Of a stretch of DNA of 13,806 nt, positions 1,522 to 9,218 are shown one piece after another. Where the stretch lies: contig JBKPAK010000180.1 of NCBI GenBank assembly GCA_046726415.1, positions 1-13,806 on the forward strand, read 5' to 3'. A program made the position numbers and the translations under genes. The DNA comes from Candidatus Methylomirabilota bacterium (lineage in GTDB: Bacteria > Methylomirabilota > Methylomirabilia > Rokubacteriales > CSP1-6). Position 1 is the stretch's first letter; every line of letters begins with the position of its first letter. The notes below the pieces were generated by a model. That model did no database searches. It was given only the letters and a program-made list of their open reading frames with translations, and had not been told where the DNA came from.

Positions 1522-3807
1522 ATGATCGGAGTGGCCCATCCTCGCCTCGGTGGCGACCGGCTCGTCTTGGGAGCGGGCCAGTTCGTGGCCGACGTGCATC
1601 CTCCAGGGATGCTGGAGGCCGCGGTGTTGCGCTCCCGCCATGCGCACGCGCGCGTGGTGGCCATCGACGCCAAGCGGGCGTTGGAGCTGGGGGGCGTGCG
1701 CGCCGTCCTGATGGCCCCCGACGTCCCGGAGGCGGCCATCATTCCCAATCGGGTGCCCGCGCCACCGGGGACCGCGCGTTATCTGCAGCCGGCCATCGCG
1801 CGCGGGGTCGCGCGCTACGTGGGCGAGCCGCTCGCTCTGGTGGTCGCCGACGATCGCTACATCGCCGAGGATGCCTTGTCGCTGATCGACGTCACCTACG
1901 AGGCGCACCCCGCCTGCACGTCGGTGGCCGAGGCCTTGGCACCGGGCGCCCCACGCCTCTTCGCCGGCACGGAGTCGAACAACGTCGCCGTCATCCAGAT
2001 GCGCGTCGGCGACGCCGACGCCGCGCTGACCGGCGCCCCGCTCATCGTCCGCGAGCATTTCCGCCATCCGCGGCAGACCGGGGCGGCCCTCGAGACACGT
2101 GGGCTCGTGGCGGTGCCCCCCGATCCCCGCGGCGGGGAGCTCCACCTGATCGGCTCCACGAAGTGCATTCACATCAACCGGACTATTCTGGGGCCGATCT
2201 TCGGCATTCCACCGGGCGCACTCCGCCTCACCGAGATCGACGTGGGGGGCGGCTTCGGGCCCCGCGGCGAGCTGTACCCGGAGGACATTCTGGTGCCACT
2301 CGCGGCCATGAAGCTCGGTCGACCGGTGCGCTGGATCGAGAGCCGGCGCGAGAGTCTGATGGCCACCAACCACGCGCGTGACGCCGAGTACGAAATCGAG
2401 ATGGCCTTCGAGGCCGACGGGCGCATCCGCGGCATGCGCGTGGTCATTCGCGCCGACATCGGCGCCTACGTGCGCACGGCCGCCCTCGTACCCTCGGAAT
2501 TCGGGGCCGCGTTGCTCCCGGGCCCGTATCGCGTTCCGCACTATACCTGCGATCTGTGGTCAGTGGTGACCAACAAGACGCCGGTGGGCACCCTGCGCTC
2601 GCCAGGCCGCCCCGAGTGCAACTTCGCTCGCGAGCGCTTGATGGACATGGCGTCCGCGCGTCTCGAGCTCGATGCCGCCGAGATCCGGCGCCGCAACCTC
2701 ATCCGCCCCGAGGAGATGCCGTACGACTGCGGGACGAAGTCATTCGGCGCGACGACGGTGTACGACTCCGGCGACTTCCCCGCCCTGTTCGACGAGATGC
2801 TGCGCCGGCTCGACTACCACCGGGCGCGGGCCGAGCAGCGGGCTCTCAACAAGGGCTCGGGGCTCCGGCGCGGCATCGGGCTCGCCGCGTATGTCGAGAA
2901 GACAGGGCTCGGCCCCTTCGAGACGACGCATGTCGAGGCGCGGCCCGACGGGCGGTTCACCGTCGACACGGGTGCGGCCTCGATGGGGCCAGGGCTGGAG
3001 ACGGTACTCGCGCAGATCCTGGGCGACGCGCTCGGCCTTCCCGCCGATCGCTTCGATGTCCGGCATGCCGACACCGCCACGGTGGAGAGCGGCGTGGGGA
3101 CGTACGGCTCGCGCGGCACGGTGACTGCCGGCAATGCGGCCCACATGGCGGCGGCCAAACTCGTGGCCGATGCCCGCGCGCGCGCCGCGGAGCTGTGGAA
3201 CGTGCCAGTGGACACCATCGCCTACGCGGCCGGCGTTCTCTCCACCAATGGCCGGCGAATCAGCCTGGCCGAGCTGGCCGCACGCGGCAAGCTCGCGGCG
3301 GGAACGTCGTTCAATGTCACCAAGCTGACCTATGCCGGATGTGCGGCGGCCGTCGTGCTGGATGCGGATCCCGAGACCGGGGCGATCAGATTGCGGCGGG
3401 TCGTCGTGGGTGCCGACGTGGGTCGCGCGGTGAACCCGGCTCTGATCGACGGGCAGCTCATCGGCGGCGTGGCCTTCGGTATAGGCAACGCACAGCTCGA
3501 GAGCCTGGAGTACGACGGCGCGGGCCAGCTCCTCGCCGGGACGTTCATGGACTATGCGCTGCCATACGCGCCAGACGTGCCAGCGGTCGAGGGCTTCTAC
3601 CAGGAGGTTCGCGCCACCACCAACCCTCTCGGGCTTCGCGGACTCGGAGAGTGCGGCAACCCGGGGCTCGGCGCAGCCATCGCCAACGCGGTCTGCGACG
3701 CCTTCGCTGACCTCGGCGTTTCGCTCACCGCGCTGCCGGTGTCGCCCCAACGGGTCTACCAGGCCATCCGTCGGGCTCGCCCCGCGGCCGTTGGCCTCGC
3801 ACCGTGA
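1522..3807 (+). CDS. Xanthine dehydrogenase family molybdopterin-binding large subunit (CoxL/CutL-like, not form I CODH); substrate unknown
   Basis: Start moved from 1321 to ATG 1522, which follows RBS GGGAGGTG; 761 aa. Motifs LRSRHAHARV, RYVGEPLALVVA, ALETRG, DVGGGFGPRGE, GRPVRWIESRRESL, YDSGDFP, GTYGSRG, DVGRAVNP..IDGQLIGG and NPLGLRGLGECG. The active-site loop reads TLRSPGR. Confidence 0.9.
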   Translation: MIGVAHPRLGGDRLVLGAGQFVADVHPPGMLEAAVLRSRHAHARVVAIDAKRALELGGVRAVLMAPDVPEAAIIPNRVPAPPGTARYLQPAIARGVARYVGEPLALVVADDRYIAEDALSLIDVTYEAHPACTSVAEALAPGAPRLFAGTESNNVAVIQMRVGDADAALTGAPLIVREHFRHPRQTGAALETRGLVAVPPDPRGGELHLIGSTKCIHINRTILGPIFGIPPGALRLTEIDVGGGFGPRGELYPEDILVPLAAMKLGRPVRWIESRRESLMATNHARDAEYEIEMAFEADGRIRGMRVVIRADIGAYVRTAALVPSEFGAALLPGPYRVPHYTCDLWSVVTNKTPVGTLRSPGRPECNFARERLMDMASARLELDAAEIRRRNLIRPEEMPYDCGTKSFGATTVYDSGDFPALFDEMLRRLDYHRARAEQRALNKGSGLRRGIGLAAYVEKTGLGPFETTHVEARPDGRFTVDTGAASMGPGLETVLAQILGDALGLPADRFDVRHADTATVESGVGTYGSRGTVTAGNAAHMAAAKLVADARARAAELWNVPVDTIAYAAGVLSTNGRRISLAELAARGKLAAGTSFNVTKLTYAGCAAAVVLDADPETGAIRLRRVVVGADVGRAVNPALIDGQLIGGVAFGIGNAQLESLEYDGAGQLLAGTFMDYALPYAPDVPAVEGFYQEVRATTNPLGLRGLGECGNPGLGAAIANAVCDAFADLGVSLTALPVSPQRVYQAIRRARPAAVGLAP

Positions 3808-3892: not shown

Positions 3893-4765
3893 ATGATCCC
3901 GGCCGCATTCGAGTATCACGCCCCAGGCTCGATCAATGAGGCAACCGCGCTGCTCGCGACGCTCGGTGAGGACGCGAAGGTGCTCTCGGGAGGCCAGAGC
4001 CTCATCCCGCTCATGAAGCTCCGCCTCGCCAGTCCGCGCCATCTGGTCGATATCAACGGGATCCCCGGTCTGGCTCACATTCGCGAAGCCGATGGCGGCC
4101 TCCACATCGGCGCCCTCACCCGCGAGGCGGAGTTGGAGGAGTCCGATCTCATCCGGACCCGCTATCCGCTCCTCCACGACGCGTGCCGGGTGATCGCCGA
4201 TCCTCTGGTGCGGAGCCTCGCCACCGTCGGGGGCAATCTCGCCCACGGCGACCCGGCCAACGATCACCCCGCGGTCATGCTGGCGCTCGGCGCCGAGATT
4301 GTCGCCATTGGTACCCGGGGCGAGCGCCGTATTCCCATCGCCTCGTTCTTCACCGGCCCCTTCGCGACGGCGCTCGGTCCCGACGAGATTTTGGTGGAGA
4401 TCCGAATTCCTGCGCCCGCGGCACGCAGCGCGGGCGCTTACCTCAAGCTCGAGCGAAAGGTCGGTGACTTCGCCACGGCTGCCGTGGCGGTGCAACTCAC
4501 GGTGAGCGCGGGCCGGTGCGAACGCGTGGGCATCGGCCTCACCAATGTGGGGTTGACGCCCATCAAGGCCGAGCAGGCGGAGTCGTCGTTGGTGGGCCAG
4601 CGGCCGGATGCGGCGCGCATCAGGCACGCCGCGCAGCTTGCCGCCGAGGCGTCGCAGCCCACCGCCGATCTCCGAGGCCCCGTGGAGTACAAAAAGGACC
4701 TCGTGAGAGTCTTGACGGCTCGCGCACTCTACCGCGCCCTCGAGCGCGCCGGCGTAGAAAGGTGA
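3893..4765 (+). CDS. coxM: Aerobic CO dehydrogenase medium (FAD-binding) subunit
   Basis: 290 aa. [11 protein letters not shown] start, [43 protein letters not shown] and [10 protein letters not shown]. It is the first gene of the M-S-L order typical of form I. Confidence 0.92.
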
Positions 4766-4770
4766 CGCAC

Positions 4771-5261
4771 ATGCGGATCGCCCTGTCGATCAACGGCGAG
4801 AAGCACGAGGCCGACGTCGAGCCGCGCCTCTTGCTCGTTCACCTGATTCGGGACGTGCTGCGGCTCACCGGCACCCACATCGGGTGCGACACGACCCACT
4901 GCGGCGCCTGCGCGGTCATCATGTCTGGACGCCCGGTGAAGTCATGCACGGTGTTCGCCGTACAGGCCCGCGGCAAGGACATCATGACGGTGGAAGGCCT
5001 CGAACGCGATGGCCAGCTCCATCCGCTCCAGGAGGGGTTCATGGCGAAGCACGGCTTGCAGTGCGGGTACTGCACGCCGGGCATGCTGATGACCAGCTAC
5101 GCCCTCCTCGCGAAGCATCCGGCCCCGAGCGAGGATGAGATCCGCTGGGCGATCTCCGGCAACCTCTGCCGTTGCACCGGCTACATGAACATCGTCAAGG
5201 CCATCCGGCACGCGGCGGAGAAGATGCAGGGAGATGGGCGAGCGAGACAAGGAGGGGCGTG

Positions 5262-5262
<1 letters not shown>
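4771..5262 (+). CDS. coxS: Aerobic CO dehydrogenase small ([2Fe-2S]) subunit
   Basis: Start at ATG 4771 after GAAAGGTG (not 4516); 163 aa. [10 protein letters not shown]...KSC and QCGYCTPG...GNLCRCTGY supply the ligands for two [2Fe-2S] clusters. Confidence 0.93.
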
Positions 5263-7628
<2,366 letters not shown>

Positions 7629-7674: not shown

Positions 7675-8601
7675 GTGGCTGACGATCTCCTCGAACTAGC
7701 ATCGGAGCTCCGGCGCTGCGGCGAACCCTTCGCGCTGGCCACGGTCGTGCGGTGCGAACCACCGACCTCGGCCAAGCCGGGTGCCAAGGCGCTGGTCCGC
7801 GCCGACGGCAGCGTTTCCGGCTGGGTCGGCGGTGCCTGCGCCGAGCCGGTGGTCGTGCGGGAGGCCCTCAGCGCCCTCCGCGACGGGCGGCCGCGCCTCG
7901 TCGGGCTCATCGGAGAGGGTCGCCGCGGTCCGGGCCGGACAGAAGGGTTGCTCGAGTACCCGATGAGCTGCCACAGTGGCGGCACCCTGGAGATCTACGT
8001 GGAGCCCTACCTTCCCAAGCGCCGGCTGGTGATCGTGGGACAGGGTCCGGTGGTCGAAACCCTGGCAACTCTCGCCGGCGCCGTGGAGCACTCGGTGGTG
8101 GTGCTCCGTGAAGGTGCCGTCCCGTCGGGGCTCGACCGGCTGGACCTCGCGGGCGCTGCCGTGGTCGTGGCGACTCACGGAAACTTTGACGAAGACGCGC
8201 TGGCGCGGGTCCTCACGAGCCAGGCTGGGTACGTGAGCCTGGTCGCCAGTCGCCGTAGGGCCGCTGCCATCGTCGAGAGTCTCCGGCAGAGGGGCGTGCC
8301 ATCCGAACATCTGGCCCGACTCAAGGCCCCGGCGGGCGTGGACATCGGTGCCTCCACCCCCGAGGAGATCGCCGTGAGCATTCTCGCCGAGATCATCCAG
8401 CACCACCGAAGCGCCAAGAGCTTGCCGGGAGTCGCCGCTGAGCCGTCCGGTAGGGATCCGATCTGCGGGATGCTCGTCCCCCTCGCCACCGCGAAGTACG
8501 GCTCGCAGGCGCGTGGACATCGGGTGTACTTCTGCAGCCGTCACTGCCAGGAAACCTTCGACCATGACCCCGAGCGTTACCTCGCGGGGGCCGGCGGATG
8601 A
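7675..8601 (+). CDS. XdhC/CoxF(CoxI)-family Moco chaperone/maturase fused to a C-terminal YHS/TRASH domain
   Basis: FALATVVR..PTSAKPGAKA, GWVGGAC, MSCHSGG.LEIYVEP, VVATHG..DE.AL, YVSLVAS and APAGVDIGASTPEEIAVSILAEI, followed by DPICGM...YFCSRHC..TF..DPERYL at ~8452-8583. The start is uncertain (in-frame GTG at 7636, 7639 or 7675). Confidence 0.85.
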   Translation: MADDLLELASELRRCGEPFALATVVRCEPPTSAKPGAKALVRADGSVSGWVGGACAEPVVVREALSALRDGRPRLVGLIGEGRRGPGRTEGLLEYPMSCHSGGTLEIYVEPYLPKRRLVIVGQGPVVETLATLAGAVEHSVVVLREGAVPSGLDRLDLAGAAVVVATHGNFDEDALARVLTSQAGYVSLVASRRRAAAIVESLRQRGVPSEHLARLKAPAGVDIGASTPEEIAVSILAEIIQHHRSAKSLPGVAAEPSGRDPICGMLVPLATAKYGSQARGHRVYFCSRHCQETFDHDPERYLAGAGG

Positions 8602-9218
8602 GGCCATTCGTCTCCGGCCTCGTCCTCGCGGCTGGCTCCTCCACGCGCCTCGGCCAGCCCAAGCAGCTCCTCCCGTTCGGCGCCACCACGCTCCTCGACC
8701 GCGTGGTGGGCGAGGCGAATTCCGCCTCGGCGCTGGACGAGGTCGTCGTGGTCATCGGAGGCGCCGCCGCCGAGGTCCGCGATCGCGTCGATTTCGGCGG
8801 GGCCAAGGTCATCGAGAATCCGGAGTTCGCCCGGGGATGCTCGGCCTCGTACCGCGCGGGAATCGGCGGGCTCGACGCGGACTCTGCCGCCGTCGTCGTG
8901 CTGCTCGGGGACGAGCCGGGTGTCGACCGAGACGTCATCGACCTTATGGCCCTGGCCTGGCGCGCCACCTCCGCGCCCATCATGCTGGCCGCCTACTGCG
9001 ACGCGGAGGGTCACCCGCTCGTCTTCGCTCGCGGGCTCTTCGATCAGCTCATCGCTCTGCAGGGCGACAAGGCGGCCTGGAAGATCGTCGATGCGCATCG
9101 GGATTGGATCCAGCCGGTTTCGATCGACCGTCCCCGGCCGCGGGGCGTCAACACCCGGGAGGAGTACGAAGCGCTCGTCGGCCGCCGCTTCCCGAGAACA
9201 CCTTACGAAATCACTTGA
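8598..9218 (+). CDS. mocA: Molybdenum cofactor cytidylyltransferase (MocA-like nucleotidyltransferase)
   Basis: 206 aa with an ATGA overlap to the upstream gene. LAAGSSTRLGQPKQLL (LAAG type, not MobA LAGG), LLGDEP, GHPLVF and GDKAA. CODH uses MCD, which fits the context. Confidence 0.8.
   Translation: MRPFVSGLVLAAGSSTRLGQPKQLLPFGATTLLDRVVGEANSASALDEVVVVIGGAAAEVRDRVDFGGAKVIENPEFARGCSASYRAGIGGLDADSAAVVVLLGDEPGVDRDVIDLMALAWRATSAPIMLAAYCDAEGHPLVFARGLFDQLIALQGDKAAWKIVDAHRDWIQPVSIDRPRPRGVNTREEYEALVGRRFPRTPYEIT

Follow-up and report, generated by a model that had tools for sequence, protein, structure and literature searches.

A YHS domain carried by the XdhC-family protein CoxF accompanies form I (Mo-Cu) carbon monoxide dehydrogenase

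The window analyzed here is an entire contig of 13,806 bases (C180; GenBank JBKPAK010000180.1) from the genome of a Candidatus Methylomirabilota bacterium (7.6 Mb, 67.5% G+C, 352 contigs, 98% complete). It encodes a carbon monoxide dehydrogenase (CODH) that is aerobic and of form I, the Mo-Cu type, and directly after the gene of its large subunit, coxL, a protein of the XdhC family with a C-terminal YHS domain. Judged by its sequence, the gene for this protein is a coxF of a YHS-bearing type. We find that the YHS form of CoxF is strictly associated with form I CoxL, and that it is the majority form of CoxF in nature.

An XdhC-family protein with a C-terminal YHS domain

Positions 7675 to 8601 (forward strand, as for all features given below) are open throughout and translate to 308 residues. 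Three Pfam domains score above their gathering cut-offs, in the order that an earlier note on this DNA had described (an XdhC domain followed by a YHS/TRASH domain). These are an XdhC_CoxI N-terminal domain at residues 14-76 (7714..7902; PF02625, 72.4 bits, cut-off 24.3), a Rossmann-like XdhC_C domain at residues 118-240 (8026..8394; PF13478, 103.8 bits, cut-off 29.7), and the YHS domain at residues 261-304 (8455..8586; PF04945, 35.2 bits, E 1.2e-8, cut-off 30.3). The linker between the XdhC core and the YHS domain (residues 241-260; 8395..8454) has no Pfam match and differs in length among relatives. A profile scan of the whole genome with the YHS model returned 8455-8586 with 39 bits, while PF02625 and PF13478 each matched once in the 7.6 Mb, both times in this gene. 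There are two candidate start codons: the GTG at 7675 agrees with the N-termini of relatives, and the GTG at 7636 matches the start of the 321-aa public gene call for the 90% cluster.

The string RDPICGM...YFCSRHC is present as the earlier note wrote it, and its three YHS cysteines are C264, C287 and C291. The domain shows the pattern of a YHS module (D/C-x2-C ... C-x3-C, a Y-F-C-S signature, about 45 residues). D261, C264, C287 and C291 correspond to the Asp and three Cys that have been proposed as YHS metal ligands (PMC4626032). Across 58 diverse fusions that were aligned, C264, M266, F286, C287 and C291 do not vary, and conservation reaches at least 90% at D261 and P262. The N-terminal YHS domain of an HMBD-bearing P1B ATPase from the same genome is identical at 18 of 46 positions (39%). 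P1B-type Cu-ATPases and the M. phlei adenylyl cyclase have YHS domains of the same Pfam family, with the same pattern of Asp and three Cys, but there the domain is fused to a transporter or a cyclase, whereas the window domain is fused to a maturation factor of a Mo enzyme.

An AlphaFold2 model built on the 58-row alignment had a mean predicted local distance difference test score (pLDDT) of 92.7 and a predicted template-modelling score (pTM) of 0.83. The YHS part was predicted with pLDDT values of 90-97; the linker had the lowest block means (77-84 versus 90-98 elsewhere). The predicted fold matches the solved XdhC-like structures 2we8 and 3on5. Likeness to the PDB entries 2we7/2we8 (XdhC of Rhodobacter capsulatus / mycobacterial Rv0376c homologue) was found both by sequence (phmmer E 1.8e-17) and by structure (Foldseek E 1e-16, template-modelling score 0.51), but these proteins are of the longer, two-module XdhC/CoxI type and have no metal-binding tail. 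Prediction of a complex between CoxL (788 aa; alignment of 19 rows) and the YHS part (residues 252-308; alignment of 58 rows) scored 0.00 against a mark of 0.32, which says nothing either way.

The YHS form is found beside form I coxL

The window coxL (5262..7628) ends 47 nt before the coxF-type gene. It has three Pfam domains and is identified as a form I large subunit by TIGR02416 (1255.4 bits versus a cut-off of 991). A motif search located the active-site loop AYRCSFR at residues 370-376 (6369..6389); its Cys is presumably a Cu ligand. Across 19 form I CoxL sequences, A370, Y371, C373, S374 and R376 are invariant. In a six-frame translation of the whole genome, AY.CSFR has a single match, the one in this coxL. 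The genome contains 41 MoCoBD_1 matches (about 38 large subunits of the xanthine-oxidase family); AYRCSFR occurs in one of them and AYRGAGR in five.

The earlier note had asked whether the fusion is enriched beside coxL of the AYRCSFR type relative to other Mo hydroxylases. The outcome was strongly positive in all samples drawn. A search of genome contigs yielded 42 loci, 40 of them Rokubacteria-type. Upstream sequence is present in 38 of the 40, and in all 38 coxL lies directly upstream at about 92% identity, with just its C-terminal part remaining in two (L042, L045). Two loci (L070, L071) start inside the fusion gene, with no coxL in view. The other two of the 42 are Chloroflexia XdhC genes without YHS, and these adjoin subunits that are not form I.

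Plasmids gave the same association. Among 161 plasmid records with an XdhC homologue, the YHS part was covered in six (five species from three bacterial phyla and one archaeal phylum): Thermomicrobium roseum, Caballeronia SBC1 and SBC2, Paraburkholderia aromaticivorans, Natronorubrum bangense and Deinococcus sp. AJ005. The large subunit of all six clusters is annotated as aerobic CODH or contains AYRCSF[RM]. Plasmid matches in Sphingobium xenophagum and Cupriavidus pinatubonensis were considered as counter-examples and rejected; the tblastn range notwithstanding, their open reading frames (ORFs) contain no YHS domain. The YHS-less XdhC gene of C. pinatubonensis sits in a Mo-hydroxylase cluster that does not encode CODH. 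The protein from the megaplasmid of T. roseum DSM 5159 (WP_143714800.1) is 44% identical to the window protein over residues 1-304 and likewise combines XdhC with YHS. Its cluster has the order coxM-S-L-XdhC/YHS without adjacent coxD or coxE, and its CoxL has the form I loop AYRCSFR. It differs in coming from another phylum and in having mocA upstream, not overlapping downstream.

Metagenome loci were taken as the best 80 of 552 by a 14-row alignment, a choice biased to relatives of the query, and 59 of them have the YHS domain. A CoxL at least 55% identical to the window CoxL is encoded in 43 of these 59, with the motif present wherever its region lies on the contig. Another 12 have coxD/E/G-type neighbours alone, and 4 are too short; a full-length large subunit other than form I was not seen beside the fusion in any of the 59. 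Two loci (L144, L087) had dropped out of the script's table for short high-scoring segment pairs and were read by eye. Locus L131 was a candidate for another type of large subunit, but the neighbour is just a 159-aa MoCoBD_2-like ORF, and the locus was counted as accessory-gene context. This free-standing ORF (L131 1082-1561) resembles CoxL residues 481-629 and is found between a VWA (CoxE-like) gene and the XdhC-YHS gene. The motif for form I was relaxed from AY.CSFR to [AS]Y.CS[FL] to include form I variants, namely AYRCSFM in Caballeronia, AYRCSLR in L138 and SYRCSFR in Roseivivax. Two loci (L103, L112) contain two form-I-type coxMSL clusters back to back, about 3 kb apart (4568 to 6081 in L103). 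One coxL of each encodes AYRCSFR and the other AYSCSFR; the lone XdhC-YHS gene follows the AYRCSFR copy.

Co-occurrence in the genomes of two phyla

The association was also assessed for whole genomes, with tallies that take in the unpublished genomes G029, G058, G101, G047, G192 and G381. Among 251 Chloroflexota genomes, 28 contain a full-length XdhC-YHS gene and one contains a gene cut at a contig end. TIGR02416 scores above its cut-off in 29 genomes, which are exactly the 29 with XdhC-YHS. In 27 of the 29, fusion and coxL lie within about 700 nt on one contig. A YHS-less XdhC relative (E<=1e-35) was found in 87 further genomes, and CoxL-like genes below the cut-off in 62. None of the 20 best YHS-less matches has a form-I-like CoxL within +/-7 kb; other large subunits (29-36% identity) are near 5 of them, and none is in view at the remaining 15.

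Among 151 Methylomirabilota genomes, the fusion (E<=1e-50) was found in 50 and CoxL (E<=1e-250) in 45. Both are present in 43 genomes and neither in 99; seven have the fusion alone and two CoxL alone, in both cases with CoxL at a contig end. Inspection of six of the seven fusion-alone genomes revealed an adjacent CoxL in G116, G130 and G094, frameshifted or cut by a contig end. In G015 and G025 an intact fusion gene stands beside remnants of coxM and coxL only, and in G110 the locus starts at a contig end. Genomes with neither gene still have other XdhC paralogues and dozens of large subunits, and therefore the fusion is not a general chaperone of the molybdenum cofactor (Moco).

An intact XdhC-YHS gene preceded by cox remnants only was noted at four loci, L173 (G015:C346), L174 (G025:C89), L042 and L045. 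The remnants comprise either CoxM residues 1-35 together with CoxL residues 687-788 or a junction of CoxM and CoxL. They could stem from an internal deletion of coxMSL or from assembly collapse.

The fusion is widespread

The earlier note had guessed that the fusion may already sit in databases. Among the 120 best matches in a collection of 5.8 billion proteins, 115 have all three Pfam domains. These 115 are labelled there as nothing more than 'XdhC family protein' or 'xanthine dehydrogenase accessory factor'. Representatives of clusters at 50% identity gave 16,639 matches at E<=1e-3. Of the best 150 of these representatives, 111 have the canonical tail DP[VI]CGM...YFC.x2-4C (by regular expression) and five more have a variant tail, NPVC.[IV]P, which Pfam confirmed as YHS in P0153 (35.5 bits); the rest are mostly fragments. 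Members with a name come from Thermoprotei archaea and Verrucomicrobiota. In the ESM Atlas, clusters are commonest in Acidobacteriota and Actinomycetota.

One close relative has a different domain at the place of the YHS domain. In P0180, listed under the name of a Rhodothermus marinus XdhC family protein, the XdhC core shares 51% identity with the window protein and is joined to an HMA domain at residues 277-336 (Pfam 40.9 bits versus 24.8). The HMA domain is the classical fold of Cu(I) chaperones. Short Cys/His-rich tails on the YHS-less CoxF-clade genes L126, L138 and L158 were detected by regular expression only and were given no weight.

Four representatives (P0145, P0162, P0175 and P0204, 533-565 aa) are triple fusions of MocA (NTP_transf_3), XdhC and YHS, and P0208 is an XdhC-MocA fusion protein. 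In some lineages the cytidylyltransferase is thus physically tied to CoxF, and in many related loci mocA is a separate gene downstream of XdhC-YHS.

The window protein belongs with the CoxF clade

A tree of the XdhC core was computed with IQ-TREE ('quick' setting, 91 rows, unrooted). Columns after the last Rossmann helix were removed, and rows shorter than 230 aa, 5'-truncated rows and two frameshifted rows were left out. The window protein, all YHS rows and CoxF of O. carboxidovorans OM5 together form a clade of 76 rows with a support of 95 (Shimodaira-Hasegawa-like approximate likelihood ratio test), and the window protein thus belongs with the CoxF clade. OM5 CoxI and XdhC proteins not linked to cox genes fall outside. 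The clade splits into a group of 69 rows and a YHS-less sister group of seven (support 85) made up of OM5 CoxF, Roseivivax and metagenomic relatives. Of the 69 rows, 66 have the YHS domain and one is truncated there by its contig end; the domain is degenerate in Deinococcus and lost in Nonomuraea. YHS presence requires 4 changes on this tree, versus a mean of 22 in shuffles.

OM5 CoxF (280 aa, encoded on plasmid pHCG3) shares with the window protein the XdhC_CoxI plus XdhC_C core (37% identity over 277 columns, E 1e-40), the location in a form I cox cluster and the clade in the core tree. It differs at the C-terminus, as it ends about 30 residues past the Rossmann domain without a YHS domain, at the point where that of the window protein follows. 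The OM5 cluster also has coxD and coxE directly upstream of coxF, whereas the window contig has neither. Only the Cys of the OM5 motif M107CPSHGTM has a counterpart in the window protein, C99; the Met and His around it are not kept. The window protein is also without the C-terminal, RHGxRxP-like 'phytase' motif RHGQRQS of OM5 CoxF and reads QHHRSAK at the aligned place. Both motifs characterize that single protein and do not define the clade. An RGD motif has also been reported for OM5 CoxF (PMC4240915).

The fusion does not in general replace CoxD or CoxE

Neither coxD nor coxE is present on the 13.8 kb window contig, and the T. roseum locus is likewise without them. The 40 Rokubacteria-type loci, among them loci that extend 10 kb to either side, showed no CoxD or CoxE homologue in the sequence in view. 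The earlier note had suggested that the fusion might explain the missing coxDE. For this lineage the idea fits at the level of the locus, but in general it did not hold up, as most fusions sit beside coxD and coxE: the fusion, a MoxR ATPase (CoxD) and a VWA protein (CoxE) are encoded in the same cluster in Natronorubrum, Deinococcus, Paraburkholderia, Caballeronia and about 20 metagenome loci, and the order of the genes takes several forms. The fusion does not in general replace CoxD or CoxE.

The window's genome does encode related proteins elsewhere. At the end of contig C96, after a form-II-like coxS-L(AYRGAGR)-M cluster and a second mocA (G000:C96:85497-91522; L172 2497-8523), lies the gene of a CoxD-like MoxR ATPase, whose identity to three reference CoxD proteins is 54-62%. 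Contig C96 ends about 600 nt after the CoxD-like gene, inside an open frame of 229 aa without a Pfam match. A form-II-like cluster was also seen in L053, there directly after coxF-mocA. On contig C80 (G000:C80:28208-32431; L077), a pair of genes for MoxR (AAA_5, CoxD-like) and VWA_CoxE is followed by a gene for a DUF3047 protein and a 373-aa ORF without a Pfam match; no Mo-hydroxylase gene was found on this contig. The genome has two COXG-family genes.

The cox operon of the window

The operon has the gene order coxM-S-L-F-mocA of a form I aerobic CODH in a Rokubacteria-type genome. Upstream of coxL, coxM (3893..4765) encodes the medium subunit, which binds flavin adenine dinucleotide (FAD_binding_5 and CO_deh_flav_C), and coxS (4771..5262) the small subunit with two [2Fe-2S] clusters (Fer2_2 and Fer2; N-terminus MRIALSING). 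Downstream, the stop codon of the coxF-type gene overlaps the ATG of a mocA-like gene for molybdenum cofactor cytidylyltransferase at 8598 (ATGA). The mocA-like gene (8598..9218) scores 115 bits with NTP_transf_3 and 124 bits with TIGR03310, the latter below its cut-off of 186. Genes for a TctC-family binding protein, a pyridoxal phosphate-dependent enzyme and hydantoinase A follow in that order.

The first gene of the window is of the Iso_dh family (55-1110). Directly 5' of coxM lies a gene for an orphan large subunit of the xanthine-oxidase family (about 1522-3807) without medium and small subunit genes of its own, which is not kept at that place in related loci. The nearest database relatives of the window proteins are Rokuibacteriota or Methylomirabilota by name.

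Discussion

XdhC proteins in general serve the sulfuration and insertion of Moco, not the supply of Cu. For CoxF, a role as Cu escort is already in print: it was proposed for the XdhC-family CoxF of O. carboxidovorans, by way of the motif M107CPSHGTM (Pelzmann et al., 2014; PMC4240915). According to the same report, CODH from coxE and coxF mutants is complete in Mo and contains sulfane sulfur, but is without Cu. The Mo content of the coxF mutants speaks against a Moco-insertion role of CoxF in this organism. Copper-specific activation by a YHS domain has been described for the adenylyl cyclase of M. phlei (Linder, 2015; PMC4626032).

Together, the above observations are consistent with a part of the YHS domain in copper delivery. 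We consider it probable that YHS-CoxF captures Cu(I) with its tethered YHS domain and hands it over, via the CoxF core, to sulfurated apo-CoxL. The YHS domain, on its linker of about 20 residues, would be the Cu(I)-binding module, with D261, C264, C287 and C291 as putative ligands and M266 close by. Copper taken up by the domain would be kept near the CoxF core until its transfer to the Mo site of an apo-CoxL that is already folded and sulfurated. As the sole XdhC-family match of its genome, the protein may have a wider role, but relatives usually have additional XdhC paralogues, the assembly consists of 352 contigs, and the OM5 mutants keep their Mo. We rate delivery of both molybdopterin cytosine dinucleotide and Cu by this one protein as unproven.

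That the YHS domain of CoxF binds copper and passes it on is inferred, and several points weigh against it. In the account of PMC4626032, Cu binding is not shown for the YHS domain of the Cu-ATPases, the YHS domain of toluene-4-monooxygenase is metal-free in the crystal, and the TRASH domain of ribosomal protein L24e binds metal in a structural role. The HMA variant of Rhodothermus is a single case, verified by Pfam, and is known here from the protein alone. The studied CoxF of O. carboxidovorans works without a YHS domain, and the CoxF-clade genes of Roseivivax and Nonomuraea are also YHS-less; in such lineages the domain is therefore dispensable. The fusion of Deinococcus AJ005 is without the first YHS Cys. 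The core tree favours a single old fusion, or an ancestral state, that persisted wherever form I CODH was kept, over many convergent fusions; the enrichment of YHS beside form I is therefore partly a statement about one subfamily. The genomes inside one phylum are kin, so that the counts overstate independence. For CoxL, only 3-6 first-look candidates per genome were scored, which led to false negatives in the Methylomirabilota tally.

It is possible, if unlikely, that the YHS domain is a structural module, similar to a Zn ribbon, that docks CoxF to CoxL, CoxE or membrane machinery and does not carry the copper of the enzyme. The L24e TRASH domain, which holds Cd or Zn, and the metal-free YHS domain of toluene-4-monooxygenase (PMC4626032) would fit such a role. 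Among PDB sequences the YHS part resembles only phenol hydroxylase PHN, and weakly (E 0.76), and the pTM of 0.83 for the whole chain suggests that the domain may pack in a fixed position and not swing freely. Against such a role, the large enzyme family has one Cu-dependent member, and the domain goes with that member only; it also resembles the YHS domain of a P1B ATPase in its own genome, and an HMA domain takes the same position in a close relative. The invariant M266 next to the first Cys also argues for copper, as a Met in this position is typical of Cu(I) sites. We regard it as improbable that the domain is a copper sensor, which would gate CoxF activity or cluster assembly by Cu availability, in the way suggested for the M. 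phlei adenylyl cyclase, and not a donor site. The YHS domain of the M. phlei cyclase, which has the same architecture (C-terminal, on a short linker), regulates the fused catalytic domain in a Cu-specific manner (PMC4626032), and sensor and donor are hard to separate by sequence; CoxF, on the other hand, is without a known enzymatic activity that could be regulated.

The two remaining alternatives leave copper aside. The protein could be the general XdhC Moco chaperone of the genome, serving its approximately 38 xanthine-oxidase-family enzymes, with a YHS domain unrelated to the copper of CODH. It has the sole XdhC_CoxI and XdhC_C matches in a 98%-complete genome with 41 MoCoBD_1 matches, but the apparent absence of a second XdhC may be an assembly gap. 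Related genomes without form I CoxL are also without the fusion gene, yet keep other XdhC paralogues (G132, of the same genus, is one case), and we hold this explanation to be very improbable. We give next to no credence to a role of the Cys-rich domain as a sulfur relay, in which a persulfide would supply the mu-sulfido bridge in the [CuSMoO2] cluster. The YHS domain does have three invariant Cys, and XdhC proteins have been reported to work with a cysteine desulfurase (PMC4240915), but the spacing Asp-Cys...Cys-x3-Cys has the geometry of a metal site, and coxF mutants keep near-stoichiometric cyanolysable sulfur and are without Cu alone (PMC4240915).

No paper on a YHS/TRASH fusion to XdhC or CoxF was found in a literature search whose coverage ended short of subscription journals. 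YHS in combination with 'carbon monoxide dehydrogenase' returned one paper, unrelated by its title and abstract. In Thermogemmatispora, the gene after coxL has been called 'coxI' (Islam et al., 2019; PMC6776052), and the passages seen of that paper leave a YHS domain unmentioned.

The sole model for the delivery of copper to the buried [CuSMoO2] site in aerobic CODH has been derived from the mutants of one alphaproteobacterium and from short motifs. Most CoxF proteins bear a discrete domain of a metal-binding type known from copper pumps, and this domain follows the Cu-dependent enzyme gene for gene across phyla. The link between YHS and form I would thus lend independent support, at the sequence level, to CoxF as the copper donor. 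We suggest, as a tentative possibility, that YHS-CoxF is the predominant and possibly ancestral Cu insertase. A minimal set of coxMSL and coxF (plus mocA) would then suffice in Rokubacteria and Thermomicrobium without adjacent CoxD or CoxE, and the proteobacterial system would be a derived YHS-less case in which a CoxE-dependent route compensates. One small domain with three Cys offers a clean experimental handle, and the finding bears on the heterologous production of active Mo-Cu CODH and on the annotation of XdhC-family genes.

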